64,000 nucleotides of DNA from an uncultured Desulfobacteraceae bacterium (GTDB lineage: Bacteria > Desulfobacterota > DSM-4660 > Desulfatiglandales > HGW-15). The stretch covers positions 851 to 64,850 of the forward strand of contig CAZGIZ010000003.1 in the NCBI GenBank assembly GCA_964526655.1, read 5' to 3'. Position 1 is the first letter of the stretch. Every line of letters starts with the position of its first letter. A model generated the notes under the pieces. That model was not told the origin of the DNA, made no database searches, and saw nothing but the letters and a program-made list of their open reading frames with translations. The position numbers and the translations under genes are program-made. Positions 25,908-58,474 of the stretch are shown here, one piece after another.

Positions 25908-26015
25908 AATAAATGGTTAGCATCAGGTGACTCTGATAAAACCGCAAAAATGAAGTATTAACCGTATGTAGTGAGGGCCAAGACTGTTTACTTTAATTGT
26001 GAAAGGAGGAAAGAG

Positions 26016-27248: not shown

Positions 27249-27272
27249 ATAACTGTTAAACATTGGTGAAAT

Positions 27273-27317
27273 GACCTGCCGGCTAAAGTGTGAATTTCCA
27301 CTTAATAGCGGCAGGTC
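27273..27317 (+). terminator. hairpin between the binding-protein and permease genes (possible attenuator or mRNA stabiliser)
   Basis: GACCTGCCG (27273-27281) pairs with CGGCAGGTC (27309-27317): a perfect 9-bp stem with a long loop, followed by TTAATTTAT. Confidence 0.35.
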
Positions 27318-27336
27318 TTAATTTATAGGACACCGA

Positions 27337-29953: not shown

Positions 29954-30650
29954 GATGAACCATGTATCCGTTTACTACGGCAAATCCATGGCACTCCAGG
30001 ATGTTTCCCTGAAGGTAGACCAGGGAGACGCCGTGAGCATTATCGGGGCAAACGGAGCCGGGAAAAGCACGGTGTTGAAGGCCCTGTTCGGAATAACTCC
30101 CTTAAGAGCTGGGGAGATCAGGTTTATGGGGAAACGGCTGGACGGTAAAAAAACGGCCGACATTGTCAGGATGGGCATAAGCCTCTCGCCCGAGGCGCGC
30201 CAGCTTTTCCCCTATATAAGCGTCTATAAAAACCTCAAGCTTGGCGCCACCTTGCGCAAGGACAAGGGGGAAATAAAAAAAGACTACGAAGAGGTATACC
30301 GTCTGTTTCCTGTATTGAGCCGGCGGAAGAATCAATTGGCAGGAACGCTCAGCGGGGGTGAACAACAGATGCTGGCCATTGCAAGGGCCCTTATGGCAAG
30401 GCCCAGACTGCTTTGCATGGACGAACCGTCTCTGGGTCTCGCACCGGTGGTGATCGAGGAGCTGGGCGAGGTGATCATGAATATCAATGCAAAGGGCATG
30501 AGCGTGCTCCTGGTGGAACAGAACGTTCACCTTGCCCTGGAGATAGCCTCGCACGGGTATGCCCTGCAGGTGGGGCGGGTGGTGCTGGCCGGTGATATAG
30601 AAGAAATCAGGACCAGTGATGTCATAAAAAGGGCCTATTTGGGAGGTTGA
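29946..30650 (+). CDS. ABC transporter ATP-binding protein (LivF-like)
   Basis: Walker A GANGAGKST, signature LSGGEQQML, Walker B LLCMDEPS. Confidence 0.85.
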   Translation: MLEMNHVSVYYGKSMALQDVSLKVDQGDAVSIIGANGAGKSTVLKALFGITPLRAGEIRFMGKRLDGKKTADIVRMGISLSPEARQLFPYISVYKNLKLGATLRKDKGEIKKDYEEVYRLFPVLSRRKNQLAGTLSGGEQQMLAIARALMARPRLLCMDEPSLGLAPVVIEELGEVIMNINAKGMSVLLVEQNVHLALEIASHGYALQVGRVVLAGDIEEIRTSDVIKRAYLGG

Positions 30651-30816
30651 TAGAGTCCTGTCGTATTTTGAATGATTAGGGTCCGGATAATTTTCCAGGA
30701 CCGAAGGCAACGGCGCTCCCTGGATCCCGGCTTGACGGGGAGATGACATCTCGCTGGTGCCCAGGGGTGGAGATCAACTGTTGACAGACATTATAAACAT
30801 ATAATAATATAATAAT

Positions 30817-31581
30817 ATGAATAAAATGAGACTCAATAAAAGGGATATCCCCCTCTATGTCCAGCTTGAACAGATCCTCAAATCCCAAATCATGACGGGA
30901 GAGCTTCTACCTGAAAAACGGATACCCACGGAAAAAGAACTGGCCAAAATCTACCATGTCAGCAGTATTACCGCGCGACAGGCAATCATGAGGCTTGTTC
31001 AGGAAGGGCTTCTGCTTCGTAAACAGGGCAAAGGCACCTTCGTCAGAAAAGGGCTCAAGAATACAAAAAATATCATGACCTTTAACGTGGCGGGCGACAT
31101 CAAGGACGTGGTTCCGGAGGGCTTGATATCACAACAGGTGACTGTCTTGGGGATTGAAACAGTGAAGAGTTCCAGGCTCGTGGCCGAGGCCCTGGAAATG
31201 GCTGAGCAGGAGGACGTAAGCCGTATTACGAGGACAAGGGCCGATAATAACGTCGTCATTTCCTATATAAAAAATTACTTGCCGGTGGATATAGGTAAGA
31301 AGATTACCAAGGAAGACCTGTTAGCCAAACCCATGCTCCATGTACTGAAAAATAAGCTGAAACTGTCTTTAAAAAAAGGCATTCAGTATGTTGTGGCGGT
31401 TACTGCTGATTATGAGATAGCCTCTGCCCTTTCCATCAGCATTTCATCGCCTGTTTTATATTTGGAGACTATTATTTATGATATGAATGACAGGCCAGTT
31501 GATTTCGTGCAGACATTTTACCGGTCTGACCTTTTTAGATATACGCTCAAAATTGATATGAAAGAGATTATGTCGGCCTGA
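30817..31581 (+). CDS. GntR-family regulator with UTRA effector domain (HutC subfamily-like)
   Basis: N-terminal wHTH (PLYVQLEQILKSQIMTGELLPEKRIPTEKELAKIYHVSSITARQAIMRLVQEGLLLRKQGKGTFV) followed by a ~150-aa C-terminal domain. Confidence 0.8.
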   Translation: MNKMRLNKRDIPLYVQLEQILKSQIMTGELLPEKRIPTEKELAKIYHVSSITARQAIMRLVQEGLLLRKQGKGTFVRKGLKNTKNIMTFNVAGDIKDVVPEGLISQQVTVLGIETVKSSRLVAEALEMAEQEDVSRITRTRADNNVVISYIKNYLPVDIGKKITKEDLLAKPMLHVLKNKLKLSLKKGIQYVVAVTADYEIASALSISISSPVLYLETIIYDMNDRPVDFVQTFYRSDLFRYTLKIDMKEIMSA

Positions 31582-31633
31582 TGATCCGGATTTGTCTACC
31601 TAACGATTACACAAAATATAGAGGAAACAAGAT

Positions 31634-33025
31634 ATGCAGAAAAAACAATCATCCACATTAGCCCAATTTCTGGCAGATTTTTTGGTCGAGTGCAAGTACG
31701 AAGATATCCCCGCTGATACGGTCCAAAAGGTAAAACATTATGTTATCGATGTGATGGGGTGTATGGTGGGAGCATCCCGCGAGAAACAGGCAGAGATTAT
31801 AAAAGCAGTGCTGACTGAAGAGGGGGGCAATCCCCATAGCTCGGTTTTTGCCGGCGGATACAAGACCTCTGTTATGAACGCTGCCCTCATCAATGGTGCC
31901 CAGGGGCATATGTTTGATTTTGATGACGATCACCGGGAAGGAACCATGCATCCTTCCGTAGCCGTGTTCCCGGCTGTCTTTGCATTGGGTGAAAAGTTAG
32001 GGGTCAACGGAAAGGAATTGGTCAGGGCCTTTATCCTTGGGTTGGAGGTGATGATACGGCTGGGAGAGTCATTTCTTGGGAAATCTTACTACCAGGGGTT
32101 TCATCCCACGGGCACCTGTGGCGTTTTTGGGGCCGCGGCCGGCTGCGCCATCCTGTTGGGGCTTGATAATATCCAAACCAAATACGCCCTGGGCCTGGCC
32201 GGCAGTTTCGCAGCCGGAAGCATTGAATGTACGGGTGAAGGTGCCTGGGCCAAGCCATTGCAGGCAGGTCATCCGGCCATGGGCGGGGTACTGGCGGCCT
32301 CCCTGGCCGCAAAAAACTATATCGGTCCCGGAACCATTCTGGACGGTGCCGATGGTGGGCTGATCCGCGCCTTTTCCTTTAAGGATCAATACGATTATGG
32401 CCGTATTACTGACAACATCGGAAAAAAATGGGAGATGATGGATACCAGCATCAAGGTTCATGCCTGCTGCCGTTTTTCAGCACCCGTGGCCGATTGCGCC
32501 ATAGATCTGTATCGACAGGGTGTGCGCGCAAAAGAGGTCAAGGATATCCTGGCAAAGGCAGGTGATTTTACTATCAAAACCCTTTGCAATCCACCGGAGC
32601 GAAAACTGAGGCCCCAAACCCATGTGGATGCCCAGTTCAGCCTGCCCTATGCCATTGCCGTGGCCATTTGCAAGAATAGAACCGGTATTGACGAGTTTAA
32701 AACTGATGTCCTGGGTGATCCGGAGGTCTTGGCGTTGATCGATAAGGTACGCTGGGAGGTCGATCCTGAGGCGGAGGCGATGTATCCCAAGGCCTATCCG
32801 GCCACTGTGATTGCCACCCTGAATGACGGCCGTGTCTTTGAATCCCACGTGGATTATCCAAAGGGTGATCCTGAAAACCCTGCTACCTTAGGGGAAATAA
32901 TAGACAAATTTCATTTGCTGACGAAGAAATACATGGAAGAAGAAAAACGCGACCAGATCATCGCAATGATTGAAGGACTTGAGGAAGTTGATAACATCTC
33001 CGGCCTTGCAGACCTGCTGCGATAA
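31634..33025 (+). CDS. MmgE/PrpD-family protein (2-methylcitrate dehydratase superfamily), copy 1
   Basis: 463 aa with the typical PrpD-family pattern (DVMGCMVGAS, GAQGHMFDFDD.H, HPSVAVFPAV, FHPTGTCGVFGAAA, KVHACCRFSAP, YPKGDPENP). Confidence 0.8.
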   Translation: MQKKQSSTLAQFLADFLVECKYEDIPADTVQKVKHYVIDVMGCMVGASREKQAEIIKAVLTEEGGNPHSSVFAGGYKTSVMNAALINGAQGHMFDFDDDHREGTMHPSVAVFPAVFALGEKLGVNGKELVRAFILGLEVMIRLGESFLGKSYYQGFHPTGTCGVFGAAAGCAILLGLDNIQTKYALGLAGSFAAGSIECTGEGAWAKPLQAGHPAMGGVLAASLAAKNYIGPGTILDGADGGLIRAFSFKDQYDYGRITDNIGKKWEMMDTSIKVHACCRFSAPVADCAIDLYRQGVRAKEVKDILAKAGDFTIKTLCNPPERKLRPQTHVDAQFSLPYAIAVAICKNRTGIDEFKTDVLGDPEVLALIDKVRWEVDPEAEAMYPKAYPATVIATLNDGRVFESHVDYPKGDPENPATLGEIIDKFHLLTKKYMEEEKRDQIIAMIEGLEEVDNISGLADLLR

Positions 33026-33034
33026 TAGATGATG

Positions 33035-33270
33035 GGGGAAATGCTATGAATCGATCCCTTCACCGAAAAAACCATCGGGACAGGGGGAAAACATCAAATT
33101 CCTTTATCAGAATTCCCCTCCCTCCGGGGCGTAGGTCCTCAGGGCCGGAGGCTCAGGAATTCTGATAAAATTTATTTCTTTGTGTTCTCTGCGACTCCCT
33201 GGCACGCCATCTTGTCTCGTCGAAGCCTTGGCGAAGGCGGAAGCCCTTGGGCGACGGCGGCTGCGGTGAA
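33035..33270. repeat. partial, rearranged copy of the triple-hairpin MITE-like element seen at 43034-43209
   Basis: It shares GGGGGAAA..CTATGAATCGATCCCTTC, the 14-bp stem TTTATCAGAATTCC (33103-33116) / GGAATTCTGATAAA (33156-33169), and a TGTGTTCTCTGCG...GCTGCGGTGAAA outer-arm remnant. Confidence 0.6.
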
Positions 33271-33308
33271 ATCGTTTTTGGATATTAGTGAGAAAGGACG
33301 GTCTTTTA

Positions 33309-34469
33309 ATGATAAAGGGATATCGAAAAATTTACTGTGTCATCCAGCGGGCCGGTACCAGCAAGGGAGTCTATCTCCACGAGAAGGATCTGCCCATGGA
33401 CCCGGACGCGCGGCAGAAAATCATCCTGGCAATCTTCGGCAGTCCTGACATACGGCAGATTGACGGCCTGGGGGGGGCGGACCCTTTGACGAGCAAATGT
33501 GCCATTATCGGGCCTTCGGAGAGACCGGACGCGGATGTCAATTACACCATGGCACAGGTAGGCATAGTGGATGCCCTGATCGATTTCGGGGGAAACTGCG
33601 GGAACATATCCTCAGGTGTCGGCCCCTTTGCCATCGACGAAGGTCTGGTTAAGGTCCAGGAACCGGAGACACTGGTGCGCATATACAACACCAACACAAA
33701 AAAGATCCTCAAGGCCTATGTGGCCACTGAGAATGGAAAATCCGTATACACGGGTGATTATTCCATAGACGGTGTCCCCGGAACGGGTAGCAAGATCCTG
33801 CTCGATTATTCCGGGACCGGAGGGACCTTGACAGGAAATATTTTACCCACAGGGAACCCCGTGGATATGGTGGCCGTGCCAGGGATGGGAGAAATTGAGA
33901 TTTCAATTGTGGATGCGGGTAATCCCACGTGTTTCCTGAGTCCCGAGGTCCTCGGCTTTTCAGGGATTGAGGGTCCCCAGGATCCGAAGATCATCAGCTC
34001 CCTTGACCGTATCGAGCTGATCCGGGGAACCGTTTCAAAGATGCTCGGGCTGGCCGAAGAGGCTGAAAAGGCCAGGATACAGAGCCCGACCCGTCCAATG
34101 ATCGCCTTTGTATCGCCGCCGGCAGAATATACAAGCTATACGGACGGGGCGCGGATCGGCATCCATGAGATCGACTTTGTTTCACGCCTCTTTTTCATGC
34201 AGACCATGCATAAGACCTATGCCGGCACGGGCACCGTATGCACGGGTGCGGCTGCCATGATCGAAGGCACAATCGTCAACAGGGTATGTTCGGCAAGGGC
34301 CGGAAAGGACAGGGTGGTCAGGATAGGCCATCCGAGCGGAATAATATCCATAGAGGTAGAAGTCGAGAACAGGCCTGGCGGCCCGGAACTGCGCCTGGCG
34401 GCCTTCGGACGCACTTCGCGAAGGATCATGGAAGGATATGTCTACGTGCCGGAGAGTGTTTTTGAATAG
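33309..34469 (+). CDS. PrpF-family isomerase (3-methylitaconate isomerase / aconitate isomerase / oxalomesaconate tautomerase family)
   Basis: Carries RAGTSKGVYL, GGADPLTSKCAIIG and the GGNCGN motif. ATG 33309 has the RBS AAAGGA upstream; the ORF track start at 33288 lies next to the repeat. Confidence 0.8.
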   Translation: MIKGYRKIYCVIQRAGTSKGVYLHEKDLPMDPDARQKIILAIFGSPDIRQIDGLGGADPLTSKCAIIGPSERPDADVNYTMAQVGIVDALIDFGGNCGNISSGVGPFAIDEGLVKVQEPETLVRIYNTNTKKILKAYVATENGKSVYTGDYSIDGVPGTGSKILLDYSGTGGTLTGNILPTGNPVDMVAVPGMGEIEISIVDAGNPTCFLSPEVLGFSGIEGPQDPKIISSLDRIELIRGTVSKMLGLAEEAEKARIQSPTRPMIAFVSPPAEYTSYTDGARIGIHEIDFVSRLFFMQTMHKTYAGTGTVCTGAAAMIEGTIVNRVCSARAGKDRVVRIGHPSGIISIEVEVENRPGGPELRLAAFGRTSRRIMEGYVYVPESVFE

Positions 34470-34515
34470 ATTAAAAAGGGGCTGACCCTGTTTGGGAAAT
34501 ATCAAGGGAAGAGAC

Positions 34516-35883
34516 ATGAAGGAAACCATTGATTTTGTAAAGAAGATATCTGCCATCAGGTACGAGGACCTGTCGGACCTGGCAATCGAAATGGCGGAAA
34601 AATGCCTTTTGGACTATATCGGCTGCACATACGCGGGGCTTTCCTATGAATCAAGCAACATCGTGAGGGAGTTTGCTTTGGAGAATTATGCCCCCGGGAA
34701 TTGTACCATAATCGGCTCGGGGCAAAAGCTTGTGCCGGGCGGCGCCTGTTACACAAATGGGACCACGGGCCATGCCGTTGAGCTGGATGACTGTACCAAC
34801 GAGGGGGGGGGGCATCCGGCCGTGACCATAATGCCCGTTGTACTTGCCATGGCCGAAGAGACTGGTGCAAGCGGAAAGGATGTGCTCACGGCAATTGTCG
34901 CGGGATATGAAACCTTCATAAGAATCGGGAAGGCATCCAATTACCAGTCCATGTTCGTGCGGGGCTTTCATCCGACGGCCCTCCTTGGCATGTTCGGCGC
35001 CACAATGGCGGCCGCGCACCTTCTCGATTTGAATATTGAGCAGGCGGCCAATGCCATGGGGATCGTGGGAAGCTATGTTTCCGGGAACCTGGAGTGCTAC
35101 ACGGACGGCAGTTACACAAAGCGGCTGCACGGGGGCACATCCTCATCAGCCGGTGTAACGGCGGCGCTTCTCGCGAAAAAGGGCTACACGGGGCCCAAAA
35201 CCATCCTTGAGGGGCAGAGGGGCTTTTTTCACGCCTATTGCATGGATCCAAGGCTGGAGGAGCTCTTCAAGACCGGACCCCTTGAAATCGAAAGGGTCAG
35301 CTTCAAACCCCATGCCTGCTGCCGCTTCAACCAGGCGGGTATTGACGCGGTGCTGGAGATCTTTGAACAAAACAGCATTGATTGGAAAAAGATCCAATCG
35401 ATTCTGATCGAGCTTTCAGAGACTCCCTACAATATCGTGGGCCAGCCTCAGGAAATCAAGTTCAATCCCAAGAGCGCGGTGGATGGACAGTTCAGCGCGC
35501 CCTACAGCGTGGCTATCGCGTGTATTGAAAACAGGGCATTTCTCGAAGAGTATACGGACGAATCCGTCAAAAGGCCGGATGTGCTGGAGTGTCTTAAAAA
35601 GATTACTGTAAAACACTCAACCGAGCTGGATAGGTTTTTCCCAGAATCTTTCCCAACGAGGATCACAATAACCATGGAAGACGGCAAGAACTTTGTGAGG
35701 GAGGTCCGTTATCCAAAGGGGGACCCTGAAAACCCCCTTTCCTGGGAGGATCTGCTGCAGAAATTTGACCGTTGTATGGTTGGCTCAAGTATGCTGCAGG
35801 AAAATAAAAGGAAGCTGATAGAATATATCAGAAATCTGGAGAATGCCGGGGACATGAAGGATATCACGGCACTGTTGTGTTGA
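34516..35883 (+). CDS. MmgE/PrpD-family protein, copy 2
   Basis: Same family pattern as copy 1 (GTTGHAVELDD, HPAVTIMPVV, FHPTALLGMFGATMAAA, KPHACCRFNQA, YPKGDPENP). The ORF track start at 34492 is a TTG; ATG 34516 is preferred. Confidence 0.8.
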   Translation: MKETIDFVKKISAIRYEDLSDLAIEMAEKCLLDYIGCTYAGLSYESSNIVREFALENYAPGNCTIIGSGQKLVPGGACYTNGTTGHAVELDDCTNEGGGHPAVTIMPVVLAMAEETGASGKDVLTAIVAGYETFIRIGKASNYQSMFVRGFHPTALLGMFGATMAAAHLLDLNIEQAANAMGIVGSYVSGNLECYTDGSYTKRLHGGTSSSAGVTAALLAKKGYTGPKTILEGQRGFFHAYCMDPRLEELFKTGPLEIERVSFKPHACCRFNQAGIDAVLEIFEQNSIDWKKIQSILIELSETPYNIVGQPQEIKFNPKSAVDGQFSAPYSVAIACIENRAFLEEYTDESVKRPDVLECLKKITVKHSTELDRFFPESFPTRITITMEDGKNFVREVRYPKGDPENPLSWEDLLQKFDRCMVGSSMLQENKRKLIEYIRNLENAGDMKDITALLC

Positions 35884-35964
35884 CCTTGGCAGGAATGCCA
35901 TAAGATAATCGATTTTTTCCTTTTATAAAAGTGGGCTATAAATAAATAACGAGGATCCCGACAC

Positions 35965-36861
35965 ATGAAAAAGACAATGGGATTGAGAGAATTGATCCGG
36001 AAACCGGAAATTCTGGTGGCGCCTGGGGCATATGATGCCTTTTCCGCCAAACTTATTGAAGCCGCGGGCTTTGATGCCGTTTACATGAGCGGGTTCGGCA
36101 CGGCGGCGGGTATATTCGGGCTGCCCGATATCGGAATGGTGACCATGACGGAGATGGTTGAAAATGCCAAGAGAATATCCAATTCCGTGGGAATACCGGT
36201 TATCGCCGATGCGGACACGGGCTATGGAAATCATCTAAATGTTATTAGAACCATAGAGGAATATGAAAAGGCGGGCGTAGCGGGCATTCAAATTGAGGAC
36301 CAGATATCTCCCAAGCGATGCGGACACATGGAGGGGCAAAAGATTGTTCCAATACCGGAGATGGTTGCAAAACTGCGTGCCGCGATCGAGGTAAGGAGCA
36401 ATGAGGATACGGTCATCATCGCCCGCACGGACGCTATTTCGGCGAGCGGTTTTGACGAGGCCATTAAGCGAGGGAATATCTATCGGGACGCCGGGGCTGA
36501 CCTCCTCTTTATAGAGGCCCCGAGGACACGGGAGCAGTTGGAAAAGATACCGAAACTGATAAACGGGCCGGTCCTGGTCAATATCGCGCCTAAAACTCCC
36601 TTTATGCATGTCAAGAAGTATGAAGAGTTCGGGTATGCAATGGCTATCTACCCGGCTATTACACTGACAGCCGCTTTCGGGTCGATCAAAGACAAGCTGA
36701 AGGAGCTCAAGGACCACGGCATTACGGAGGATGACGGCCATGGCAACGTGCCCTTTGAAGAATTGATTGAATTCCTGGGCCTTTCGAAATACAGGAACCT
36801 GGAGGCCAAGGTGCTGTCAGACCGAAAGGAGAATAAGCCTGAAGACGAGATTGTCTCATAA
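35965..36861 (+). CDS. isocitrate lyase / PEP mutase superfamily C-C lyase (methylisocitrate- or dimethylmalate-lyase-like)
   Basis: 298 aa with APGAYDAFSAKLIE, ADADTGYGN and the lyase signature PKRCGH. Confidence 0.8.
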   Translation: MKKTMGLRELIRKPEILVAPGAYDAFSAKLIEAAGFDAVYMSGFGTAAGIFGLPDIGMVTMTEMVENAKRISNSVGIPVIADADTGYGNHLNVIRTIEEYEKAGVAGIQIEDQISPKRCGHMEGQKIVPIPEMVAKLRAAIEVRSNEDTVIIARTDAISASGFDEAIKRGNIYRDAGADLLFIEAPRTREQLEKIPKLINGPVLVNIAPKTPFMHVKKYEEFGYAMAIYPAITLTAAFGSIKDKLKELKDHGITEDDGHGNVPFEELIEFLGLSKYRNLEAKVLSDRKENKPEDEIVS

Positions 36862-36903
36862 CGTTATTAATACTCACCCATAATCTGACGTTCTTTGATT
36901 CGT

Positions 36904-36985
36904 GCTATCAGCTATCAGCATTCAGCAATCAGCAAAAGACATGAAAAAAGGTTTGGCTGACCGCTGATCGCTGAATGCTGAAAGC
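36904..36985. repeat. intergenic heptad hairpin: (NNTCAGC)x4, loop, (GCTGANN)x4
   Basis: GC TATCAGC TATCAGC ATTCAGC AATCAGC (36904-36933) faces GCTGACC GCTGATC GCTGAAT GCTGAAA GC (36956-36985). Confidence 0.7.
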
Positions 36986-37085
36986 TCCATTCAGAAATTG
37001 GCTGTTTCTGGATGGAGCCTACTAAGATACCAGGGGAAACCTGAAGTAACTTTAATTCTTTAGAGGAAAAGCAGGAGGACACTAA

Positions 37086-37853
37086 ATGAGACTTGCTGAT
37101 AAAGTGGCTATTATCACGGGAGCTGGTTCCGGAATGGGAAGGGCAAGCGCCCTTATGTTTGCCAAAGAAGGGGCCAAAATAGTTGCAGCGGACATGAACG
37201 AAGAGACCGGCCTGGAAACGGTGGGCAGCATCAAGGCCGACGGAGGGGAAGCAGTATTCGTAAAGGTCGATGTGTCAAATGAAGAGGATGTGAAAAGGAT
37301 GATCCAAACTGCCGTTGATAGTTTTGGCAAACTCAGCATCCTTTTCAACATTGCAGGATGTCCTCAGCCCACAAAGGCCTTTGAGACTATTGAGAATGAG
37401 GAATGGGACCGGATCATGGCTGTCAACGTTAAGAGTATATTCTATGCAGCAAAATATTCCCTGCCAGAATTGAAAAAGGAAAAGGGCGTGATCCTCAATA
37501 TAGCCTCCGTGGGCGGGGAGCTTCCCAGGCCGGGAAGCCTTGCCTATGCAACCTCCAAAGGCGCGGTCATCAATATGACCAGGGCCCTGGCCGTGGAACT
37601 GGCCAGATACAGGATACGGGTGAACTGTATCAACCCGGGGCCCACGGATACGCCGATGATGTTCAAGTTTATCCCGGAATTCAATGAGGATATCAAAAAA
37701 ACAATCGGATCCCATACTCCGCTTGGTAGCTGGGTAATGCCCGAGGACATAGCCAACGCGGGTGTCTTTCTGGCTTCTGACGAGGCTTCTAAGATTACAG
37801 GTTCCGCCCTCTCAGTGGACAGCGGCCTCAGAATCGGAAGAGGGGAAGTATAG
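37086..37853 (+). CDS. short-chain dehydrogenase/reductase (SDR)
   Basis: TGAGSGMG cofactor motif and catalytic YATSKGAV. Confidence 0.85.
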   Translation: MRLADKVAIITGAGSGMGRASALMFAKEGAKIVAADMNEETGLETVGSIKADGGEAVFVKVDVSNEEDVKRMIQTAVDSFGKLSILFNIAGCPQPTKAFETIENEEWDRIMAVNVKSIFYAAKYSLPELKKEKGVILNIASVGGELPRPGSLAYATSKGAVINMTRALAVELARYRIRVNCINPGPTDTPMMFKFIPEFNEDIKKTIGSHTPLGSWVMPEDIANAGVFLASDEASKITGSALSVDSGLRIGRGEV

Positions 37854-37886
37854 TTATTCTCAGGAAATATACGAGGAGATACTGAT

Positions 37887-39815: not shown

Positions 39816-39905
39816 AGATAAGCTTTTGGTTCATTTTATTTGGGAAACCACCGTCGTGGAGGAGCAGGGAACAGAGGCTATGCCATAGGAGTCATTGCTC
39901 CGGTC

Positions 39906-40134
39906 GGGTTCTTTTTTTCAAGCCCTATCTATAGGCCAAGGTGGCGGTTCCCGCAGATGGAAGGGTTCAAGAGGACAGGTCATTTCATCTGAAAGGGACA
40001 TTCTGTCCTTCGGCTTTGCTCAGGACCGTGAGCTTGCCGAACGGCCAGGGGCTTTGTGGCGTGAACCTCCCATCTGCGGGAACGGCAGAGTCTGGTGGAA
40101 TTCTTTTTGAGATAGGGCTTGAAAGAAAGAACCC
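39906..40134. other. ~230-nt nested-hairpin element (structured RNA or MITE) in an intergenic gap
   Basis: Outer 25-bp stem at 39906-39930 / 40110-40134 with one G.U position. Second stem with a 14-bp perfect core (GTTCCCGCAGATGG) at 39943-39968 / 40063-40086. Two inner hairpins at 39972-40009 and 40010-40040. Confidence 0.6.
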
Positions 40135-40193
40135 AACCTCCGCTGTGGCTCCAAACCCTGGTCCTATGGCTCAGGATCTTAACTTCAGCCGTC

Positions 40194-40213
40194 ATTCCGG
40201 CGAAGGCCGGAAT
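40194..40213. repeat. ATTCCGGC-GAAG-GCCGGAAT hairpin unit (VIPAKAGIQ-type repeat)
   Basis: Perfect 8-bp stem with a tetraloop. The same unit, with a GAAA loop, occurs at 52137-52156. Confidence 0.6.
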
Positions 40214-40241
40214 CCAGAGTGAACTAAAAAAGAGGTCGGAA

Positions 40242-41051
40242 ATGAAAGGTATGAAGGTCTACATAATGCGAAGCGGGATCATTACGGACATGCCCAAAGA
40301 AATGCTCATCAGCACGGGAGCGCCCGTGGACCCGGAAGATGTGGTAAGGCTGCCCGTGTTGAGCTATTTGATTGATCACCCGGAGGGCATTGTCCTCTAT
40401 GATACGGGGCACAGCAGGGAGGAGCGCTATTTCAAGCCCACCGAACAGAAAGACAAGCCGGCCTGGCGGGTCCCTGAAGAGGATGAGCTGCCGAACCAGC
40501 TTAAACGGCTCGGCGTTGCCTTTAAAGACGTAAAGTACGTGGTCTGCTCCCACCTGCATATCGATCATACGGGGTACCTTGAATATTGCACAAATTCTGA
40601 AATAATAGCCAGTGATGCGGAGTTTTCTCATATGGCGAAGATGCATGCCCTGGGAAAACTGGATTATCCCTTTGTGAACGCCGATTTTGAGGAATGGCTG
40701 AGGGTGGGCCTAAACTGGCGGCTCATAGAGTCGGATGTCCAGGAATTTCAGCTCCTGGAAGGAATCAGGGTCTTTAATTTCGGTCCGGGCCATTCCTACG
40801 GGATGTTAGGTGTCCTCCTTGAGCTCGAGGAAACAGGAAATGTCATTATTATATCAGATGCCGTCTACTGCAGTGAAAACATGGGACCCCCGGTCCGTTT
40901 GCCGGGCTTTATCGTGGATAACGAGGGATACATTCGGACGGCCGAGCGCATTTTGCAACTCGCAGAGAAATATAATGCCCAAATCTGGTATGGCCATGAC
41001 ATGGAGCAATACGAGGGCCTGACATTAATGGATGACGGCTATTACAGCTAA
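40242..41051 (+). CDS. metallo-beta-lactamase-fold hydrolase, N-acyl-homoserine-lactonase-like
   Basis: HLHIDHTG (HxHxDH) motif. ATG 40242 follows AAAAGAGG. The ORF-track extension back to 40119 only translates repeat sequence. Confidence 0.75.
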   Translation: MKGMKVYIMRSGIITDMPKEMLISTGAPVDPEDVVRLPVLSYLIDHPEGIVLYDTGHSREERYFKPTEQKDKPAWRVPEEDELPNQLKRLGVAFKDVKYVVCSHLHIDHTGYLEYCTNSEIIASDAEFSHMAKMHALGKLDYPFVNADFEEWLRVGLNWRLIESDVQEFQLLEGIRVFNFGPGHSYGMLGVLLELEETGNVIIISDAVYCSENMGPPVRLPGFIVDNEGYIRTAERILQLAEKYNAQIWYGHDMEQYEGLTLMDDGYYS

Positions 41052-41069
41052 TAATATGGAGGGAATAAA

Positions 41070-43028
41070 ATGGGTCAATTCGAGCACGTCCTTTCCCCAT
41101 TTACCTTCGGTAATGTCAGAGTAAAAAACAGGATTGAGCTCGCCCCTGCCTGTTACATGTTGACCACGCACGACGGTTTTGTGACCAGGGAGATGATTGC
41201 TTACTATCAGAACTTTGCGAGGGGAGGGGCCGGGATCGTCACCATCGGAGAATCGCCCATCGACTTCGAGTATGCTAAGGGACACGAGTTCCAGTTAAAC
41301 TTGGGCGACGACAGGGTGATCAACGGGTTGAGCCGTATTGTGGAGGCCGTGCATCGATACGGGGCAAAGCTGTCCATAGAGCTTCATCATCCCGGCAGGT
41401 ATGTTCTGAACAAAAGGCCTGTTACCATTGGTCCTTCGCCTATCCCGGCGATGATGGAGGAATTGGCCGCTGCCAGGGACGACCGTCCGATCAGACCCAT
41501 CATTGAGATGAATCAGGAAATGATCGATAGGGTCATCGAGCATTTCGCGGAGGCTGCATACCGTTGCCTGAGAGCGGGATTCGAAATGGTCATGGTCCAC
41601 GGGGCGCACGGGCACCTGATTGCCCAGTTTCTCTCACCCTACACCAACAAGAGGAGCGACGGTTACGGGGGGAGCCTTGAGAACAGGGCCAAATTCGCCA
41701 TCCAGGTCCTCTCGGCCATAAGAAAGAAAGTGGGCGACAAGCTGGCCCTTGAGTATCGTATCAGCGCGGACGAGCTTGTAAAAGGCGGCATGGGCGCGGA
41801 GGAGACGATCGAGTTCGTGAAGATGATTGAGGACAAGATCGACCTTCTCCACGTCTCCGCTGGCATCCTCGCCCACCCGAAAATTATTCCTTTAATGATA
41901 CAGCCCACGTACCTTCCCCATATGTACAATGTGCATTACGCGGAACTGTTCAAAAAGGCCCTGAAGGTGCCCATCGTGACCGTGGGCTCCATCACGGATA
42001 TGGAAATGGCGGATCAGATCATTGCCGGGGGCAAGGCCGATATGGTAGCCATGGCCCGGGCCATTTTGGCTGATCCGGAGATCGTGAACAAGACCCGCCG
42101 TGGACAGGCCGAAGATGTGAGACCCTGCCTACGCTGTCATACCTGCAACAAGCTGACAGGTGCTTTCTACCCGATCCGCTGTGCCGTAAACCCTGTCCTC
42201 GGGAGGGAGCTGGATTATATCCCCCTTCCAATGGCAAGTGAAAAAAAGAAAGTTGTTGTCATAGGCGGTGGTCCGGCAGGTATGCAGGCGGCCATCACCG
42301 CATCGCAGAGGGGACATGAGGTAATCCTTTTTGAAAAAAGCGACGGGCTGGGGGGTAACCTGGTCCTGGCTGCCGGCCTGGATATCAAAGCAGACATGAA
42401 ACGCTATCTGAAATGGCTTGTCAACCAGACGGAGAAGGCCCCCCGTGTAACGGTCAGGCTGGGAAGGTCGGCGGACGCGGAGACCATCGCAGCGGAAAAG
42501 CCCGATGCCCTAATCATCGCCGCGGGAGCCGATCCTGTCATTCCGTCCATACCAGGGGTCGAGAAAGGGCATGTGGTCTGGGTGGGAGACGTGGATACGG
42601 GGAAAAAAGAGGTTGGTAAAACCGTGTTAGTGGCAGGGGGAGGGTCCACAGGAGGCGAAACAGCTTTGCAATTGGCAAAGGACGGAAAAAAGGTCACTAT
42701 AATTGAAATGCTCGGGTACGGCGAAGTGATCACAGGGTGGCCGAGGGGGCTTATGGATCAGTTGGAGGAGCTTGGCGTGCCATTTCTTACGGAGACAAAG
42801 CTGGAGGAGATAACGGATAAAGGCGCCGTTGTTATTGACAATAAGTGGAATCGATACGAGATCCCCGCGGATACGGTTATCCTCTCTCTGGGTTTTAAGC
42901 CCCGCACTGCGGTCGTTAATGAATTCAGTGGAATAACTTCGGATGTCCATGTGATCGGCGACTGCTTTAAGCCAAGGACGATCAAGGAAGCTGTTCATGA
43001 TGGATTTAACGTCGCTGTAGAAATATAG
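41070..43028 (+). CDS. OYE-type FMN / FAD / [4Fe-4S] oxidoreductase, copy 2
   Basis: 652 aa with VHGAHGHLIAQFLSP, the Cys motif CLRCHTC...C, and GGGPAGM. Confidence 0.85.
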   Translation: MGQFEHVLSPFTFGNVRVKNRIELAPACYMLTTHDGFVTREMIAYYQNFARGGAGIVTIGESPIDFEYAKGHEFQLNLGDDRVINGLSRIVEAVHRYGAKLSIELHHPGRYVLNKRPVTIGPSPIPAMMEELAAARDDRPIRPIIEMNQEMIDRVIEHFAEAAYRCLRAGFEMVMVHGAHGHLIAQFLSPYTNKRSDGYGGSLENRAKFAIQVLSAIRKKVGDKLALEYRISADELVKGGMGAEETIEFVKMIEDKIDLLHVSAGILAHPKIIPLMIQPTYLPHMYNVHYAELFKKALKVPIVTVGSITDMEMADQIIAGGKADMVAMARAILADPEIVNKTRRGQAEDVRPCLRCHTCNKLTGAFYPIRCAVNPVLGRELDYIPLPMASEKKKVVVIGGGPAGMQAAITASQRGHEVILFEKSDGLGGNLVLAAGLDIKADMKRYLKWLVNQTEKAPRVTVRLGRSADAETIAAEKPDALIIAAGADPVIPSIPGVEKGHVVWVGDVDTGKKEVGKTVLVAGGGSTGGETALQLAKDGKKVTIIEMLGYGEVITGWPRGLMDQLEELGVPFLTETKLEEITDKGAVVIDNKWNRYEIPADTVILSLGFKPRTAVVNEFSGITSDVHVIGDCFKPRTIKEAVHDGFNVAVEI

Positions 43029-43033
43029 CTATT

Positions 43034-43209
43034 TCACCACAGAGACACAGAGAACACAGAGTGTTCTTTTCATAGTATTTTTCCCTGAGAGGGGGAAAAA
43101 TACTATAAATCGATCCCTTCGGGAAAAAGGCAAATACCTTTATCAGAATTCCCTTCTCAGGAATTCTGATAAAATATCTTTCTCTGCGTCCTCTGTGTCT
43201 CTGCGGTGA
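43034..43209. repeat. 176-nt triple-hairpin MITE-like element
   Basis: Outer 28-nt inverted repeat: TCACCACAGAGACACAGAGAACACAGAG / CTCTGCGTCCTCTGTGTCTCTGCGGTGA, with 3 transition mismatches. Inner perfect 14-bp stems at 43072-43085/43093-43106 and 43139-43152/43160-43173. Confidence 0.7.
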
Positions 43210-43240
43210 GAAGACACACGATTAAACTGCGGGCAGTCCC

Positions 43241-44509
43241 ATGGGAATGACGATAACCGAAAAAATATTAGCCGATCACGCAGGATTAAAGGAAGTCTCT
43301 CCGGGTGATCTCATTGACGCCGAAATAGATGTCATTATGGGCCACGACCTTTCCACACCCCTTGCGATAAAGGAGATGGAAAGAATCGGGGCAAAGCGTG
43401 TCTTTGATCCGGAAAAGATTATCATCGTTCCCGACCACTTTACTCCGAACAAGGACCTGAAGGCCGCTGAAACCTGCAAGGGGCTCAGGAACTTCTGCAG
43501 GAATCAGGGAATCAACAATTATTTCGAGGTGGGGAGGATGGGAATATCCCACGCCCTGCTTCCCGAACAGGGGCTCGTGCTCCCCGGTGACCTTGTTGTG
43601 GGCGGAGACAGCCACACGTGCACTTACGGGGCCCTGGGCTGTTTTTCCACGGGAGTGGGCAGCACGGACCTTGCGGCAGCCATGATGACAGGGAAGTTGT
43701 GGTTTAAGGTCCCGGAGTCAATAAAATTTATTTACCACGGCAATCTCAACAAATGGGTATGCGGAAAGGACCTGATCCTTTTCACCATAGGGGATATCGG
43801 GGTTGACGGCGCTTTATATAGTGCAATGGAATTTGCAGGAAGCGCCATTGATAGATTGACCATATCAGACAGGTTGACCATGGCAAACATGGCCGTGGAG
43901 GCCGGGGCCAAAAACGGGATTTTTCAAGCAGATATAAAGACGGAGGAATATGTAAGGCACAGGGCGAAAAGGCCCTATAAGATCTTTCAAAGCGATCCTG
44001 ATGCATCTTATGCCGGTGTCCGGACCTATGATGTGGGAAAAATAGAGCCCCAGGTCGCCGTACCCCATCTCCCCAGTAATACAAGACCCCTAAGCCAACT
44101 GGCCGACATTACCATAGACCAGGTTGTCATAGGGTCCTGCACAAATGGGAGGATAGAGGATCTCAGGAGCGCGGCAAAGGTCCTCAAAGGAAACAGGGTC
44201 GCCCCCTATGTAAGGCTTATCATTATACCCGCCACCCAGCAGATATACCGCCAGGCAGTTCATGAAGGGCTTTTTGAGATTTTCATCGATGCGGGCGCGG
44301 CGATTTCGACCCCGACATGCGGCCCATGCGTGGGGGCCCACATGGGGCTGCTGGCAAAGGGAGAGCGGGCGGTCTCCACAACAAACAGAAATTTCATAGG
44401 ACGAATGGGTGATCCCGAGAGTGAAGTCTATCTTTCAAATCCTGCCGTTGCAGCCGCAAGCGCCGTGAAAGGGAGAATTGCACACCCTGATGAAGTGGTA
44501 AAAGATTAA
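43241..44509 (+). CDS. aconitase-family hydro-lyase large subunit (LeuC / homoaconitase / dimethylmaleate hydratase type)
   Basis: 422 aa with GGDSHT, GSCTNGR and CGPCVG cluster ligand motifs. Confidence 0.85.
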   Translation: MGMTITEKILADHAGLKEVSPGDLIDAEIDVIMGHDLSTPLAIKEMERIGAKRVFDPEKIIIVPDHFTPNKDLKAAETCKGLRNFCRNQGINNYFEVGRMGISHALLPEQGLVLPGDLVVGGDSHTCTYGALGCFSTGVGSTDLAAAMMTGKLWFKVPESIKFIYHGNLNKWVCGKDLILFTIGDIGVDGALYSAMEFAGSAIDRLTISDRLTMANMAVEAGAKNGIFQADIKTEEYVRHRAKRPYKIFQSDPDASYAGVRTYDVGKIEPQVAVPHLPSNTRPLSQLADITIDQVVIGSCTNGRIEDLRSAAKVLKGNRVAPYVRLIIIPATQQIYRQAVHEGLFEIFIDAGAAISTPTCGPCVGAHMGLLAKGERAVSTTNRNFIGRMGDPESEVYLSNPAVAAASAVKGRIAHPDEVVKD

Positions 44510-44522
44510 GACGGAGGGAAAA

Positions 44523-45017
44523 ATGATTTTCAGGGGACGGGCCTGGGTCTTTGGAGATGACATAGACACGGATGTGATTATTCCTGTCAGGTTTTGCAAC
44601 ACCACGGACCCGGATGAATTCGGCAAACACTGTATGCATGGGATCGATCCCGATTTCCCGAAAAAAATAGCCAGGGGCGATATCATTGTGGCCAGGAAAA
44701 ATTTTGGATGCGGCTCCTCCAGGGAACCGGCGCCAATATCCATTAAGGCCGCGGGTATCTCATGCGTAATTGCCAGGACGTTCGCCAGAATCTTTTACAG
44801 AAATGCCTTTAATGTCGGGCTTCCTCTCCTGGAGTGCACGGATGCGCCGGATGAGATAAGAGAGGGGGATGAAATAGAGGTCAATATAGATACGGGGGAG
44901 ATACTTGATGTCTCGACTAATAAAAAATTCAATGCGAAACCGATTCCCCCGTTTATGCAGGATTTAATCCGTGACAACGGATTAATGAATCACTTGGCAA
45001 AAACACTGGCTTTGTGA
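44523..45017 (+). CDS. aconitase-family hydro-lyase small subunit (LeuD type)
   Basis: 164 aa with GRAWVFGDDIDTD and NFGCGSSRE motifs. Confidence 0.85.
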   Translation: MIFRGRAWVFGDDIDTDVIIPVRFCNTTDPDEFGKHCMHGIDPDFPKKIARGDIIVARKNFGCGSSREPAPISIKAAGISCVIARTFARIFYRNAFNVGLPLLECTDAPDEIREGDEIEVNIDTGEILDVSTNKKFNAKPIPPFMQDLIRDNGLMNHLAKTLAL

Positions 45018-45058
45018 AAATAACAGATTCATAGGATTTCTATTCCGGAGGAGCTGCA

Positions 45059-46897
45059 ATGAAATCAAATGAACAGTACACCTTAAAAGTGCTTCGCGTG
45101 GATTTAAGCCGGAATCAGGTTCAGGCCGAGGAAATCGACGCGGATATTACCAAGCTTACCATAGGTGGCACGGGGATTGAGGCACGAATACTTTATGAAG
45201 AAGTCCTATCGGGGATAGAGTGGTCTGACCCGGAAAACAGATTGATCTGGTTCACCGGGCCGCTGGCCGGCACCAGGGTTGCCGGCGGGGGAACAGTCTC
45301 AATTGCCACCAAGGGTCCCATGACCAATATGGCCGGCATATCACAGGCCAATGGGTTTTTCGGTGCTTTCCTGAGGCTGTCCGGGTTGCATGGAATTATT
45401 GTACAGGGCGCCGCAAAGGAATGGTCACGCCTACATATCCATGACGGAACCGCTGAAATCCTGGATGCACGTGATCTCCAGGGAATGGGCAGCTTGCAAG
45501 CGGAAAAGACCATTCGGGCCTCCGTGAAAAAACGTTGCAGCATCTATACCATCGGAGTGGGTGGTGAGAATCTTGTGAGGTTTGCAGGGATTATCGGAGA
45601 TCACGGACACGCGGCTGCACACAATGGTCTGGGGGCCGTCATGGGCTCCAAAAAGCTCAAGGCCGTGTCCGTTGAGAGGGGGCAAATGGAGGTGCCCGTG
45701 GCTCACCCGGAGCGCTTAAAAAAGGCATCCAAAGCCCTTTTCGAGGCGGCCGTCGCGGCGGACCCCAATCTGGGAAAGGACGGAACCGCGTTTGCCTTTG
45801 AGGTGCTCATGCCCATTGGTGCTATTCCGATCAGGAATTATACCACCAATGAATTCCCTGAGGTGGACAAATTTACCGGAAAGTACATTCGATCCCATTT
45901 TAAGACCAAACCCACGCCGTGCTGGGCCTGCCGTATGGGCCATTGCACCCAGATAGAAGTCACAGAAGGACCTTATAAAGGAGTAAAAGGGGAAGAGCCG
46001 GAATATGAAGCCTTTGCTGCCATGGGACCCTTGATCTATCAAAAAGACCCGGGCGCGGCGGTCATGCTGTCCAACCTGATTGATGATCTGGGAATAGACG
46101 TCAATGAGTCGGGGTATCTCATCGCCTGGATCATGGAGTGCTATGAGAAAGGCCTTTTGACCAAAAGCGATCTGGACGGCATCGAGATGCACTGGGGAGA
46201 TCCGGAGGCCGCGGCCGCCATGCTCCGAAAGATTGCCAACCGCGAGGGATGCGGCGCCCGTTTTGCCGATGGGGTCAAACGCGCGGCCGAGGCCATGGGT
46301 GGCGAGGCCCTGGAATGCGCGATTTTCACGAAAAAGGGTGCATCCCCGAGGGGGCACGACCATAGAAGTCTCTGGATGGAATTGATCGATACCTGCGTCT
46401 CCAATACGGGTACCATTGAAACGGGCGGACCTTTGGCCAAACCGGCCGTGCTGGGTGTTGAACCCCCGAAGGATCGCTTCGATCCAATGGGCATGTCGAG
46501 GCAAAATGCGCAATTAAACGGGGGCCGGCAATTTGAGGATTGCCTGGGGACCTGCCGATTTTGTACCACGGACTTTCAACTTACCGTGGACTGCCTGAAC
46601 GCGGTTACGGGCTGGGAGCTTACTATTGCCGATGCCATGGAAGCCGGCCGTAGGGCAATTAATCAACTGCGGGTCTTCAATTTTCGACACGGCCTCACAA
46701 AAGAGATTGAGGCGCCGTCCGTGCGCTATTCCTCCACGCCCGTGGACGGGCCCGTAAAGGGCATCGGTATTGCCGGCCAATGGGAAAATATACGAAGCAA
46801 TTACTACAAGGAGATGGGCTGGGATCCTGAGACCGGGAAACCACTTCCTGATACCCTGAAAAAACTGGGTCTCGGCGACTTGATCAAAGATATATAG
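45059..46897 (+). CDS. AOR-family tungsto-/molybdopterin oxidoreductase (AOR-2, diverged)
   Basis: 612 aa with GGENLVRFAGII, AAHNGLGAVMGSKKLKAVSV, CWACRMGHC and EPEYEAFAAMG. RBS GGAGGAG. Confidence 0.85.
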   Translation: MKSNEQYTLKVLRVDLSRNQVQAEEIDADITKLTIGGTGIEARILYEEVLSGIEWSDPENRLIWFTGPLAGTRVAGGGTVSIATKGPMTNMAGISQANGFFGAFLRLSGLHGIIVQGAAKEWSRLHIHDGTAEILDARDLQGMGSLQAEKTIRASVKKRCSIYTIGVGGENLVRFAGIIGDHGHAAAHNGLGAVMGSKKLKAVSVERGQMEVPVAHPERLKKASKALFEAAVAADPNLGKDGTAFAFEVLMPIGAIPIRNYTTNEFPEVDKFTGKYIRSHFKTKPTPCWACRMGHCTQIEVTEGPYKGVKGEEPEYEAFAAMGPLIYQKDPGAAVMLSNLIDDLGIDVNESGYLIAWIMECYEKGLLTKSDLDGIEMHWGDPEAAAAMLRKIANREGCGARFADGVKRAAEAMGGEALECAIFTKKGASPRGHDHRSLWMELIDTCVSNTGTIETGGPLAKPAVLGVEPPKDRFDPMGMSRQNAQLNGGRQFEDCLGTCRFCTTDFQLTVDCLNAVTGWELTIADAMEAGRRAINQLRVFNFRHGLTKEIEAPSVRYSSTPVDGPVKGIGIAGQWENIRSNYYKEMGWDPETGKPLPDTLKKLGLGDLIKDI

Positions 46898-52084: not shown

Positions 52085-52241
52085 CCCAATGTCATTAACT
52101 TAAGCCTTCAGCCCCGATATATAAGTCTCAGGCGTCATTCCGGCGAAAGCCGGAATCCAGTCTTTTCAGGCCTTCTGGACCCCGGCTTTCGCCGGGGTGA
52201 CGGTGTGGGAATACAATTCCCCTTAAGTTAATGGCAGTGGG
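52085..52241. mobile_element. 157-nt MITE-like element
   Basis: 20-nt terminal inverted repeats: CCCAATGTCATTAACTTAAG (52085-52104) and CTTAAGTTAATGGCAGTGGG (52222-52241). They enclose two inverted copies of a 27-nt self-hairpin unit, with stems at 52137-52156 and 52180-52197. Confidence 0.6.
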
Positions 52242-55525: not shown

Positions 55526-55546
55526 AAGGCGCATGGGAAAAGGGCA

Positions 55547-56503: not shown

Positions 56504-56514
56504 GGAACTTAAAA

Positions 56515-58459: not shown

Positions 58460-58474
58460 ATACGAGGAAAAACC

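Follow-up and report, generated by a model that had tools for sequence, protein, structure and literature searches.

The stretch of DNA analyzed here (the window: 64,000 bp of contig CAZGIZ010000003.1, from an uncultured Desulfobacteraceae bacterium) contains a cluster of 12 genes, at 30817–46897, that includes homologs of the three enzymes that close nicotinate fermentation in Eubacterium barkeri, namely Mii, DmdAB, and Dml. Similarity and gene order indicate that this three-enzyme module is genetically coupled to MmgE/PrpD-family proteins, to pairs of a reductase and a ring hydrolase, to an aldehyde:ferredoxin oxidoreductase (AOR), and to an importer. We lean, if only slightly, toward reading the cluster as a pathway that degrades imported carboxylic acids, cyclic or branched, with no need of oxygen, CoA, or B12, and in which reduction and hydrolysis would feed a Mii/DmdAB/Dml-type module. 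The cluster is real, conserved, and apparently undescribed, and it appears to be built round a known terminal module rather than to be a new kind of system; a literature search that was largely without subscription journals found no published assignment of this gene set.

All 12 open reading frames (ORFs) are on the + strand at the positions given in a first-pass annotation made from the letters and an ORF list, whose family assignments were borne out for every cluster gene by Pfam and NCBIfam: GntR+UTRA, MmgE/PrpD (twice, PrpD1 and PrpD2), PrpF, PEP_mutase/ICL, a short-chain dehydrogenase/reductase (SDR), Oxidored_FMN+Pyr_redox_2 (twice, the ene-reductases ER1 and ER2 of 642 and 652 aa), Lactamase_B, Aconitase, Aconitase_C, and AFOR_N+AFOR_C. 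The motifs that it had picked out are likewise present (GNCGN at residue 102 of the PrpF-like protein, PKRCGH at residue 116 of the lyase, and HLHIDH at residue 145 of the lactonase), and both ene-reductases have a CxxCxxC...C cysteine motif. The start of the PrpF-like gene in Table 1 is probably correct, as the resulting 386 aa match the length of identical database copies. The first 41–44 residues of the lactonase ORF cross a repeat, which gives it a spurious N-terminal extension (...VIPAKAGIQ...), and the true start is likely the downstream one. No homolog of PrpC, LeuA, LeuB, the B12 mutase, enamidase, or the other tested E. barkeri nic proteins was found in the 64-kb window.

The proposal that these genes include a module for isomerization, then hydration, then retro-aldol cleavage, supplied by feeders that differ from those of E. 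barkeri, is supported by direct comparison with that organism, by structure matches, and by synteny that crosses phyla. Only four of the 16 ORFs in the E. barkeri locus (L023) match the window by tblastn, and these encode Mii, Dml, DmdA, and DmdB (52, 46, 57, and 58% identity, respectively). When the isomerase is compared with Mii, PrpF, and LigU it is nearest to Mii, with 406 bits for the E. barkeri structure 3g7k in a PDB search vs. 226 for PrpF, 211 for LigU, and no more than 232 for any other PrpF-fold structure, and the catalytic Lys/Cys pair of Mii (the TSK lysine and GNCGN cysteine) is conserved. The lyase is nearer to Dml than to PrpB, and its top PDB match is the 2,3-dimethylmalate lyase 3fa3 (201 bits). 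Both proteins fall below the NCBIfam cut-offs for the enzymes whose names they would attract, the lyase scoring 280 on the PrpB model (cut-off 354) and the isomerase 268 on the PrpF model (cut-off 441). E. barkeri Dml and Mii, run as controls, show the same sub-threshold PrpB and PrpF/OMA-tautomerase pattern. In addition, R241 and R270 of E. coli PrpB are replaced by T and F in the window lyase and by Y and F in E. barkeri Dml. We take these two arginines to hold the distal carboxylate of the succinate leaving group in PrpB, and, provided that this is right, their replacement suggests that the substrate of the window lyase has a mono-acid leaving group.

The hydratase has the cluster cysteines at 300, 360, and 363 of its LeuC-type subunit. 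This subunit passes the LEU2 equivalog cut-off (685 vs. 611), and the LeuD-type subunit falls below its own (218 vs. 246). The characterized E. barkeri DmdA also passes the LEU2 cut-off (726 vs. 611) and DmdB the LeuD cut-off (262 vs. 246), so that automated annotation will name the dmdA and dmdB genes (15233–17029 in the E. barkeri locus) isopropylmalate dehydratase. We therefore reject a LEU2 equivalog match as proof of leucine biosynthesis, and, since the DmdA, Dml, and Mii controls behave like the window proteins, pipeline names are not to be trusted for these genes. Indeed, the labels PrpD, PrpF, PrpB-like, and LeuCD form an annotation trap, in that they imply a methylcitrate cycle and leucine synthesis, both of which are probably absent. 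The LeuD specificity loop, which reads NT in the window as it does in DmdB, was judged uninformative because the motif rules were not verifiable.

Conservation of the gene set in other anaerobes, which the first-pass annotation had proposed as a check, was seen by comparison of gene neighborhoods, in which the core, made up of the PrpD-like, Mii-like, lyase, and LeuCD-like genes, recurs with synteny that spans phyla. The related loci are those approximately 13 in which the isomerase is at least 66% identical to that of the window, and the wider comparison took in 80-odd loci; homologs of the isomerase with at least 72% identity number more than 100 proteins in public metagenomes. A PrpD-like protein, Mii, and the lyase occur together in 11 of the related loci (L006, L007, L008, L009, L060, L082, L083, L086, L087, and contigs of P0026 and P0035), and all of these except L009 also have LeuCD in range. 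L006 matches AOR1 (an AOR gene upstream of the 12 genes, see below), every importer gene, GntR, both PrpD-like proteins, Mii, the lyase, and LeuCD with orthologs of 64–77% identity. Identity to PrpD1 is 67–74% for its orthologs from environmental loci and about 50% for those from gut clusters. Those of PrpD2 (63–66%) come after Mii in L005, L006, and L082, with a PrpD-like gene in the same position in L086, and in most related loci LeuCD orthologs (65–76%) accompany the core. More broadly, the linkage of LeuCD to Mii and the lyase extends over Desulfobacterota, Dehalococcoidia, Syntrophales, and Firmicutes.

Gut Oscillospiraceae and their relatives, among them Marasmitruncus, Neopoerus, and Enterocloster hominis, carry a compact form in which Mii, the lyase, and LeuCD are accompanied by a PrpR-like sigma-54 activator, a PrpD1-like protein (about 50% identity), a metallo-β-lactamase-fold (MBL) protein, a TRAP or SSF transporter, and a D-2-hydroxyacid dehydrogenase. 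Carriers in culture include Marasmitruncus massiliensis, Enterocloster hominis, Neopoerus faecalis, and Sporomusa sp. KB1. The DctP protein of the gut TRAP transporter matches many structures with no clear nearest ligand. Three further loci (L025, L044, and L048) are minimal, with a TRAP transporter, Mii, LeuCD, and the lyase only. None of the eight nicotinate-type loci that have the mutase has a PrpD-like gene, and none of the PrpD-type loci has a mutase.

Two subtypes of LeuCD were seen in this comparison. Identity of the hydratase to the window proteins is only about 37–40% (large subunit) and 39–49% (small subunit) in six loci (L010, L012, L024, L026, L031, and L034), values close to those for E. 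barkeri DmdAB, and most mutase-containing nicotinate-type clusters show such a LeuCD; the PrpD-type clusters carry the DmdAB-like subtype (57–63%). Judging from this distribution, the dimethylmaleate hydratase role may have arisen twice, in two LeuCD lineages.

Almost all of the loci pair a reductase with a ring hydrolase, although the families vary. ER2 with an MBL protein is found in the window, L008, L005, and L087; a 696-aa ene-reductase with a PF04199 cyclase in L005, L006, and the P0026 and P0035 contigs; and a 643-aa ene-reductase with a cyclase in L086. Hydantoinase A/B accompanies an ER1 ortholog in L082 and also occurs in L060. Other sets are a CN-hydrolase with an ene-reductase (L085), Amidohydro_1 with an ene-reductase (L039), and PreA/PreT with Amidohydro_1 and an M20 peptidase (L065 and L036). 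In L008, a Dehalococcoidaceae locus, LeuC and LeuD stand on either side of the lactonase-ER2 pair (52 and 70% identity), an arrangement that is hard to reconcile with unrelated functions. The ER2 ortholog of L005 (73%) adjoins an MBL gene, and the ER1 ortholog of L082 (77%) follows LeuD. The window lactonase matches the AhlS family with 244 bits, below the cut-off of 475, and the best PDB match of ER2 is 2-naphthoyl-CoA reductase (300 bits). The window SDR is only about 31% identical to SDR282, which is kept in other loci. AOR2, at the downstream end, is 33% identical to AOR1 and has the cluster motif CxxCxxxxC instead of CxxCxxxC; it has no ortholog in the related loci, where its best match (35%) is an AOR1 ortholog. 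One further arrangement was noted in L085 (11347–16682), where behind a Mii-like gene come a gene for a weakly MftA-like peptide and those for a radical-SAM/SPASM maturase, a pair of ene-reductases, and electron transfer flavoproteins; this hints at a mycofactocin-like redox partner for this class of ene-reductase.

The first-pass annotation drew the boundaries of the cluster too narrowly: its 12 genes are real, but it missed AOR1 and an ATP-binding cassette (ABC) transporter, and the unit begins at about 23735 (Table 1). AOR1 scores 390 bits against the Pyrococcus furiosus AOR structure 1aor and has the CxxCxxxC motif. Its orthologs (64–67%) adjoin the core in L006 and L082, and in L086 and the P0026 contig the core likewise has AOR genes beside it. 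The importer has orthologs (65–70%) linked to the core in L006 and the same architecture in L082, L086, and L060. Its binding protein has a best PDB match of 33 bits, which gives no clue to the ligand. The palindrome ATTATA-N4-TATAAT occurs twice in the window (at 23760 and 30790) vs. 0.09 occurrences expected by chance, and the copy at 30790 overlaps the TTGACA/TATAAT promoter of the GntR gene. The arrangement TTGACA-ACATTATA-N4-TATAAT is also present upstream of the L006 GntR ortholog (64% identity). Being common to both window promoters and kept in L006, the palindrome points to a repressor operator, and we infer that 23.7–46.9 kb forms one regulon under the GntR/UTRA repressor, with the palindrome as its candidate operator. 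No Rfam match to a riboswitch or leader RNA was found upstream of AOR1. Divergent from the AOR1 promoter lies a gene (22242–23576, – strand) for a 444-aa protein that has a URO-D domain at its C terminus and matches no NCBIfam model. A 44% identical ortholog lies beside the ER2 ortholog in L005 (4012–5352), and this gene is possibly part of the system.

Table 1. Coordinates of the cluster, its upstream extension, and an intergenic repeat (positions in the window)
Feature	Position	Strand	Remarks
Candidate GntR operator, site 1	23735–23775	+	TTGACA promoter-like element and palindrome ATTATATTTTTATAAT, ~280 bp upstream of AOR1
AOR1, AOR of tungsten type (by sequence)	24039–25907	+	AFOR_N+AFOR_C; start may be 24051
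Liv-type ABC importer, whole	25971–30650	+	Pfam/NCBIfam domains
Importer, Peripla_BP_6 binding protein	25971–27248	+	
Importer, fused LivH/M permease	27337–29193	+	
Importer, two ATPases	29180–29953, 29946–30650	+	
Candidate autoregulatory operator, site 2	30781–30813	+	Sigma-70-like TTGACA, 16–18 nt spacer, TATAAT-like element; overlapping palindrome ATTATAAACATATAAT
GntR/UTRA (HutC-type) regulator	30817–31581	+	Pfam GntR+UTRA; orthologs 64–68% identical in L006 and L060
PrpD1, MmgE/PrpD family	31634–33025	+	Not a 2-methylcitrate dehydratase
Dispersed intergenic repeat with hairpins	33034–33200	.	Second copy at 43093–43201, ~85% identity
Mii-like PrpF-fold isomerase	33309–34469	+	Predicted alkylidenesuccinate (methylitaconate-type) delta-isomerase
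PrpD2, second MmgE/PrpD-family protein	34492–35883	+	Start possibly 34516; ~31% identical to PrpD1
Dml-like ICL/PEP-mutase-family C-C lyase	35965–36861	+	Closest structure is 2,3-dimethylmalate lyase
SDR	37086–37853	+	Accessory feeder pair with ER1
Ene-reductase ER1	37887–39815	+	FMN, FAD/NAD, [4Fe-4S]; accessory feeder pair with SDR
MBL-fold lactonase-type hydrolase	40119–41051 (ORF)	+	Likely start 40242–40251; feeder pair with ER2
Ene-reductase ER2	41070–43028	+	Feeder pair with lactonase
DmdAB-like [4Fe-4S] hydro-lyase, two subunits	43241–44509 (LeuC-type), 44523–45017 (LeuD-type)	+	
AOR2, divergent AOR-family protein	45059–46897	+	AFOR_N+AFOR_C; accessory gene

In the route that we favor, an FMN/FAD/[4Fe-4S] ene-reductase (ER2, ER1) would reduce a ring C=C bond of a heterocyclic or unsaturated acid, and the ring would be opened by a hydrolase to give a substituted succinate, the hydrolase being the MBL lactonase here and a cyclase, hydantoinase A/B, amidohydrolase, or CN-hydrolase elsewhere. 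The SDR and the tungsten AORs might shift the released side chain between its alcohol, aldehyde, and acid states. The PrpD-family pair would then turn the substituted succinate into an alkylidenesuccinate, standing in for the Hmd and B12-mutase steps of nicotinate fermentation; the chemistry could be β-elimination of a hydroxyl or amino group (from a compound of the 2-(hydroxymethyl)succinate type), epimerization, or an IRG1-like decarboxylation. From there the Mii-like isomerase would turn the alkylidenesuccinate ((methyl)itaconate type) into a dialkylmaleate by moving its double bond, hydration by the DmdAB-like Fe-S enzyme would yield a 2-hydroxy-2,3-dialkylsuccinate, and the Dml-like lyase would cleave this to pyruvate (or another 2-oxo acid) and acetate or propionate. 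More tentatively, these loci may represent a widespread “methylitaconate shunt,” free of B12 and CoA, in which PrpD-family proteins perform a new β-elimination or decarboxylation of ring-opened lactones or lactams, and the (methyl)itaconate-type acids so formed enter the Mii/DmdAB/Dml steps. The lactone or unsaturated polycarboxylate suggested as substrate in the first-pass annotation is a guess. Among possible substrates we considered 2-pyrone-4,6-dicarboxylate, coumalate, isonicotinate/citrazinate, vitamin B6 lactone, maleimides, paraconate/aconate-type butenolides, uracil-5-acetate, and trans-aconitate, and the sequence neither supports nor excludes any of them.

PrpD1 and PrpD2 score 57 bits on the PrpD models of NCBIfam (cut-offs 458–950), identity to E. 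coli PrpD is 25%, and both side with iminodisuccinate (IDS) epimerase and IRG1 in the family, not with PrpD. PrpD1, the one compared residue by residue, keeps the equivalents of mouse IRG1 D93, H103, H159, K207, and K272, but has D, C, and R at the positions of T97, H277, and L278, so that the active-site set of cis-aconitate decarboxylase (CAD) is not complete. The main rival for the role of the PrpD-like proteins is an IRG1-like decarboxylation within a CoA-independent aconitate/itaconate route, which we regard as unlikely. One PrpD-like protein would be an IRG1-type CAD and the other a citrate/isocitrate-type dehydratase, together giving itaconate; the Mii-like protein would make citraconate, LeuCD would make (R)-citramalate, and the lyase would release pyruvate and acetate, with the reductases, lactonase, and AORs as side activities. 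Besides the affinity to IRG1/CAD and the conserved His and Lys residues, this rival draws on the minimal clusters of TRAP transporter, Mii, LeuCD, and lyase, which imply that a free dicarboxylate such as itaconate is the direct substrate, and on the many gut and herbivore-gut sources among the related loci. LeuCD hydrates citraconate, and Mii reportedly isomerizes itaconate slowly. Against it stand the three substituted IRG1 residues and the identity of the best PDB relatives of PrpD1 (at about 154 bits), which are IDS-epimerase and the B. subtilis “IRG1,” a protein considered not to be a CAD (PMC12290011). It also leaves unexplained why a reductase and a ring hydrolase go together in almost all loci and why the ABC importer is of the amino-acid type.

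Several observations count against the route that we favor. The role that it assigns to the PrpD-like proteins is pure inference on our part, and it is not obvious what an AOR would do in a route whose end products are acids. SDR-ER1 and AOR2, which are not kept alongside the core, may have another purpose, and L005 and L085 have Mii, PrpD, and an ene-reductase but no lyase or LeuCD within 10 kb. Gaps of 210–430 bp with hairpin repeats could break the region into four or five transcripts. Finally, sequence cannot distinguish DmdAB from a biosynthetic LeuCD, since the real DmdA passes the LEU2 cut-off; the linkage of LeuCD-type genes to Mii and the lyase across many phyla argues against a biosynthetic role.

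Some of the same facts would suit a mosaic of unrelated units, which we consider improbable. In such a mosaic LeuCD would serve leucine or isoleucine synthesis, the AORs would be aldehyde scavengers, the ene-reductases, lactonase, and SDR would be xenobiotic reductases, and only PrpD, PrpF, and the lyase would belong together. It is in keeping with the LEU2 score of LeuC, the long repeat-filled gaps between sub-blocks, the lack of orthologs of SDR, ER1, and AOR2 in most related loci, and the presence of five AOR-family genes in the window (1938–3944, 15316–17274, 24039–25907, 45059–46897, and 53612–55525). However, real DmdA passes the same cut-off and the window LeuD misses its own, there is no LeuA or LeuB in the 64 kb, LeuCD keeps its links to Mii and the lyase in four lineages, and in L008 LeuC and LeuD are split by the lactonase-ER2 pair. 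AOR1 and the transporter, moreover, are orthologously linked to the core and have the candidate operator in common with it.

We give somewhat less credence to a reductive electron sink, in which the ene-reductases would reduce imported unsaturated branched dicarboxylates or maleimide/lactone-type compounds, the PrpD-like proteins would be methylsuccinate-type epimerases, and cleavage would be only partial. Ene-reductases of this class do normally reduce activated C=C bonds, MmgE/PrpD-family methylsuccinate isomerases have been characterized (PMC12290011; see also PMC9875883), and work cited in PMC12290011 describes gut bacteria that respire itaconate-type acceptors. An apparently anaerobic host of the Desulfobacterota type would, however, have other electron sinks, the alkylsuccinate products would have no obvious fate, and a complete cleavage module with an importer argues for carbon catabolism. 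Least probable of all, by our reckoning, is ordinary nicotinate fermentation or an ordinary 2-methylcitrate cycle whose remaining genes (those for the B12 mutase and enamidase, or prpC and acnD) would lie in another part of the genome, a reading that the PrpD, PrpF, PrpB-like, and LeuCD-like family annotation fits superficially, but which conflicts with genuine nicotinate clusters keeping the mutase, enamidase, and others beside Mii and never a PrpD, with none of these in the window, and with the wide margins by which the PrpD, PrpF, and PrpB equivalog cut-offs are all missed and the lack of PrpC in the window.

The view of the first-pass annotation that this is not a methylcitrate cycle is supported. 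We rejected that cycle on the equivalog scores, in which the lyase and isomerase fall short in the same way as Dml and Mii, and because E. coli PrpC has no tblastn match in the window; the only aconitase-family gene there scores 63 bits on the AcnD model. A genuine nicotinate cluster was rejected because tblastn found no nic-specific genes in the window. The further claim of CoA independence is consistent with the data and not proven by them: the cluster has no CoA ligase or transferase, and known MmgE/PrpD-family members, to which a methylsuccinate isomerase has been added, act on free acids with a succinate (C4-dicarboxylate) substructure (PMC12290011, 2025; see also PMC9875883 for the isomerase). 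That no CoA ligase is present holds within the cluster, but one lies nearby (20295–21878, – strand). It is the only AMP-ligase, belongs to the benzoate-CoA ligase family (664 bits vs. a cut-off of 375), and was rejected as a cluster member, as its position beside a Bam-like class II benzoyl-CoA reductase cluster marks it as part of a separate unit.

This Bam-like cluster (6201–17274, – strand) includes a 652-aa AOR-family protein, a 184-aa ORF, an HdrD-like CCG protein, a 1043-aa HdrA-like protein, and a NuoF-like protein with small neighboring ORFs, and it points to a host that is an obligately anaerobic degrader of aromatic compounds. A second AOR-like gene (668 aa) with a 183-aa partner lies at 1369–3944 (– strand). 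The benzoate-CoA ligase family gene forms an aromatic-acid unit with an IclR-type regulator (18158–18940) and an FdhD-like gene (18937–19767, – strand). Downstream of the cluster, a block on the + strand (53612–62975) contains an AOR, ABC permeases, a DUF6282 protein, two proteins of about 500 aa, at least one of which is an FAD-dependent oxidoreductase, and a LarA-like nickel-pincer racemase that scores 429 on the lactate racemase model (cut-off 460) and 391 on the malate racemase model (cut-off 500). This block may encode another hydroxy-acid pathway.

The repeats that had been described as filling the gaps are genuine dispersed repeats with internal hairpins. In addition to the pair in Table 1, further families occupy the gaps 36862–37085 and 39816–40241; the repeat at 36867–36990 recurs in intergenic DNA at 13271–13397, and part of the second gap (40185–40217) recurs at 52128–52160. 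The window thus has at least three families of short intergenic REP/MITE-like repeats with internal hairpins.

If the route outlined above is confirmed, the closing three steps of nicotinate fermentation would be a portable module that serves other substrates, and sediments and guts would gain an oxygen-, CoA-, and B12-independent means of mineralizing branched or heterocyclic acids. A large unannotated branch of MmgE/PrpD proteins would also gain a role, in a family whose known reactions are so far few (dehydratase, decarboxylase, and epimerase). Should the shunt exist, the minimal and gut clusters would constitute the first route for itaconate-type acids that does without CoA, with a bearing on the use of host or fungal itaconate by gut bacteria.

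Among the closest known systems is the terminal branch of nicotinate fermentation in E. barkeri, with which the cluster has in common enzymes of the Mii, DmdAB, and Dml types, their catalytic motifs, their clustering, and an oxygen- and CoA-independent chemistry. E. barkeri has nicotinate dehydrogenase, 6-hydroxynicotinate reductase, enamidase, Hgd, Hmd, and the B12-dependent 2-methyleneglutarate mutase, all absent from the window, which has instead two MmgE/PrpD proteins, ene-reductases, an MBL hydrolase, an SDR, tungsten AORs, and an ABC importer. Among the 80-odd loci compared, the PrpD-type and mutase-type clusters are mutually exclusive. The 2-methylcitrate cycle (PrpBCDE or AcnD/PrpF) likewise uses the MmgE/PrpD, PrpF, and ICL/PEP-mutase lyase families, but three cut-offs are missed here, PrpC, AcnD, and PrpE are lacking, the lyase is without R241 and R270 of PrpB, and the genes are linked to a LeuCD-type hydratase that the cycle does not use.

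The characterized free-acid enzymes of the MmgE/PrpD family (IRG1/CAD, iminodisuccinate epimerase, and the (S)-(R)-methylsuccinate isomerase PA0881) resemble the window proteins in fold, in dicarboxylate-binding His and Lys residues, and in having free-acid substrates, and the Pseudomonas member also sits within catabolism of a branched dicarboxylate (itaconate). Identity to these is only about 25–30%, however, the CAD-specific residues are changed, and the partners Ict, Ich, and Ccl are missing. Finally, compared with the lower pathway of protocatechuate 4,5-cleavage and gallate degradation (LigI, LigU/GalD, LigJ, and LigK), the window lactonase, hydratase, and lyase come from other families and the isomerase is much nearer to Mii than to LigU (406 vs. 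211 bits), so that the resemblance is one of logic only: lactone hydrolysis, PrpF-fold isomerization, hydration, and cleavage to pyruvate, all independent of oxygen.

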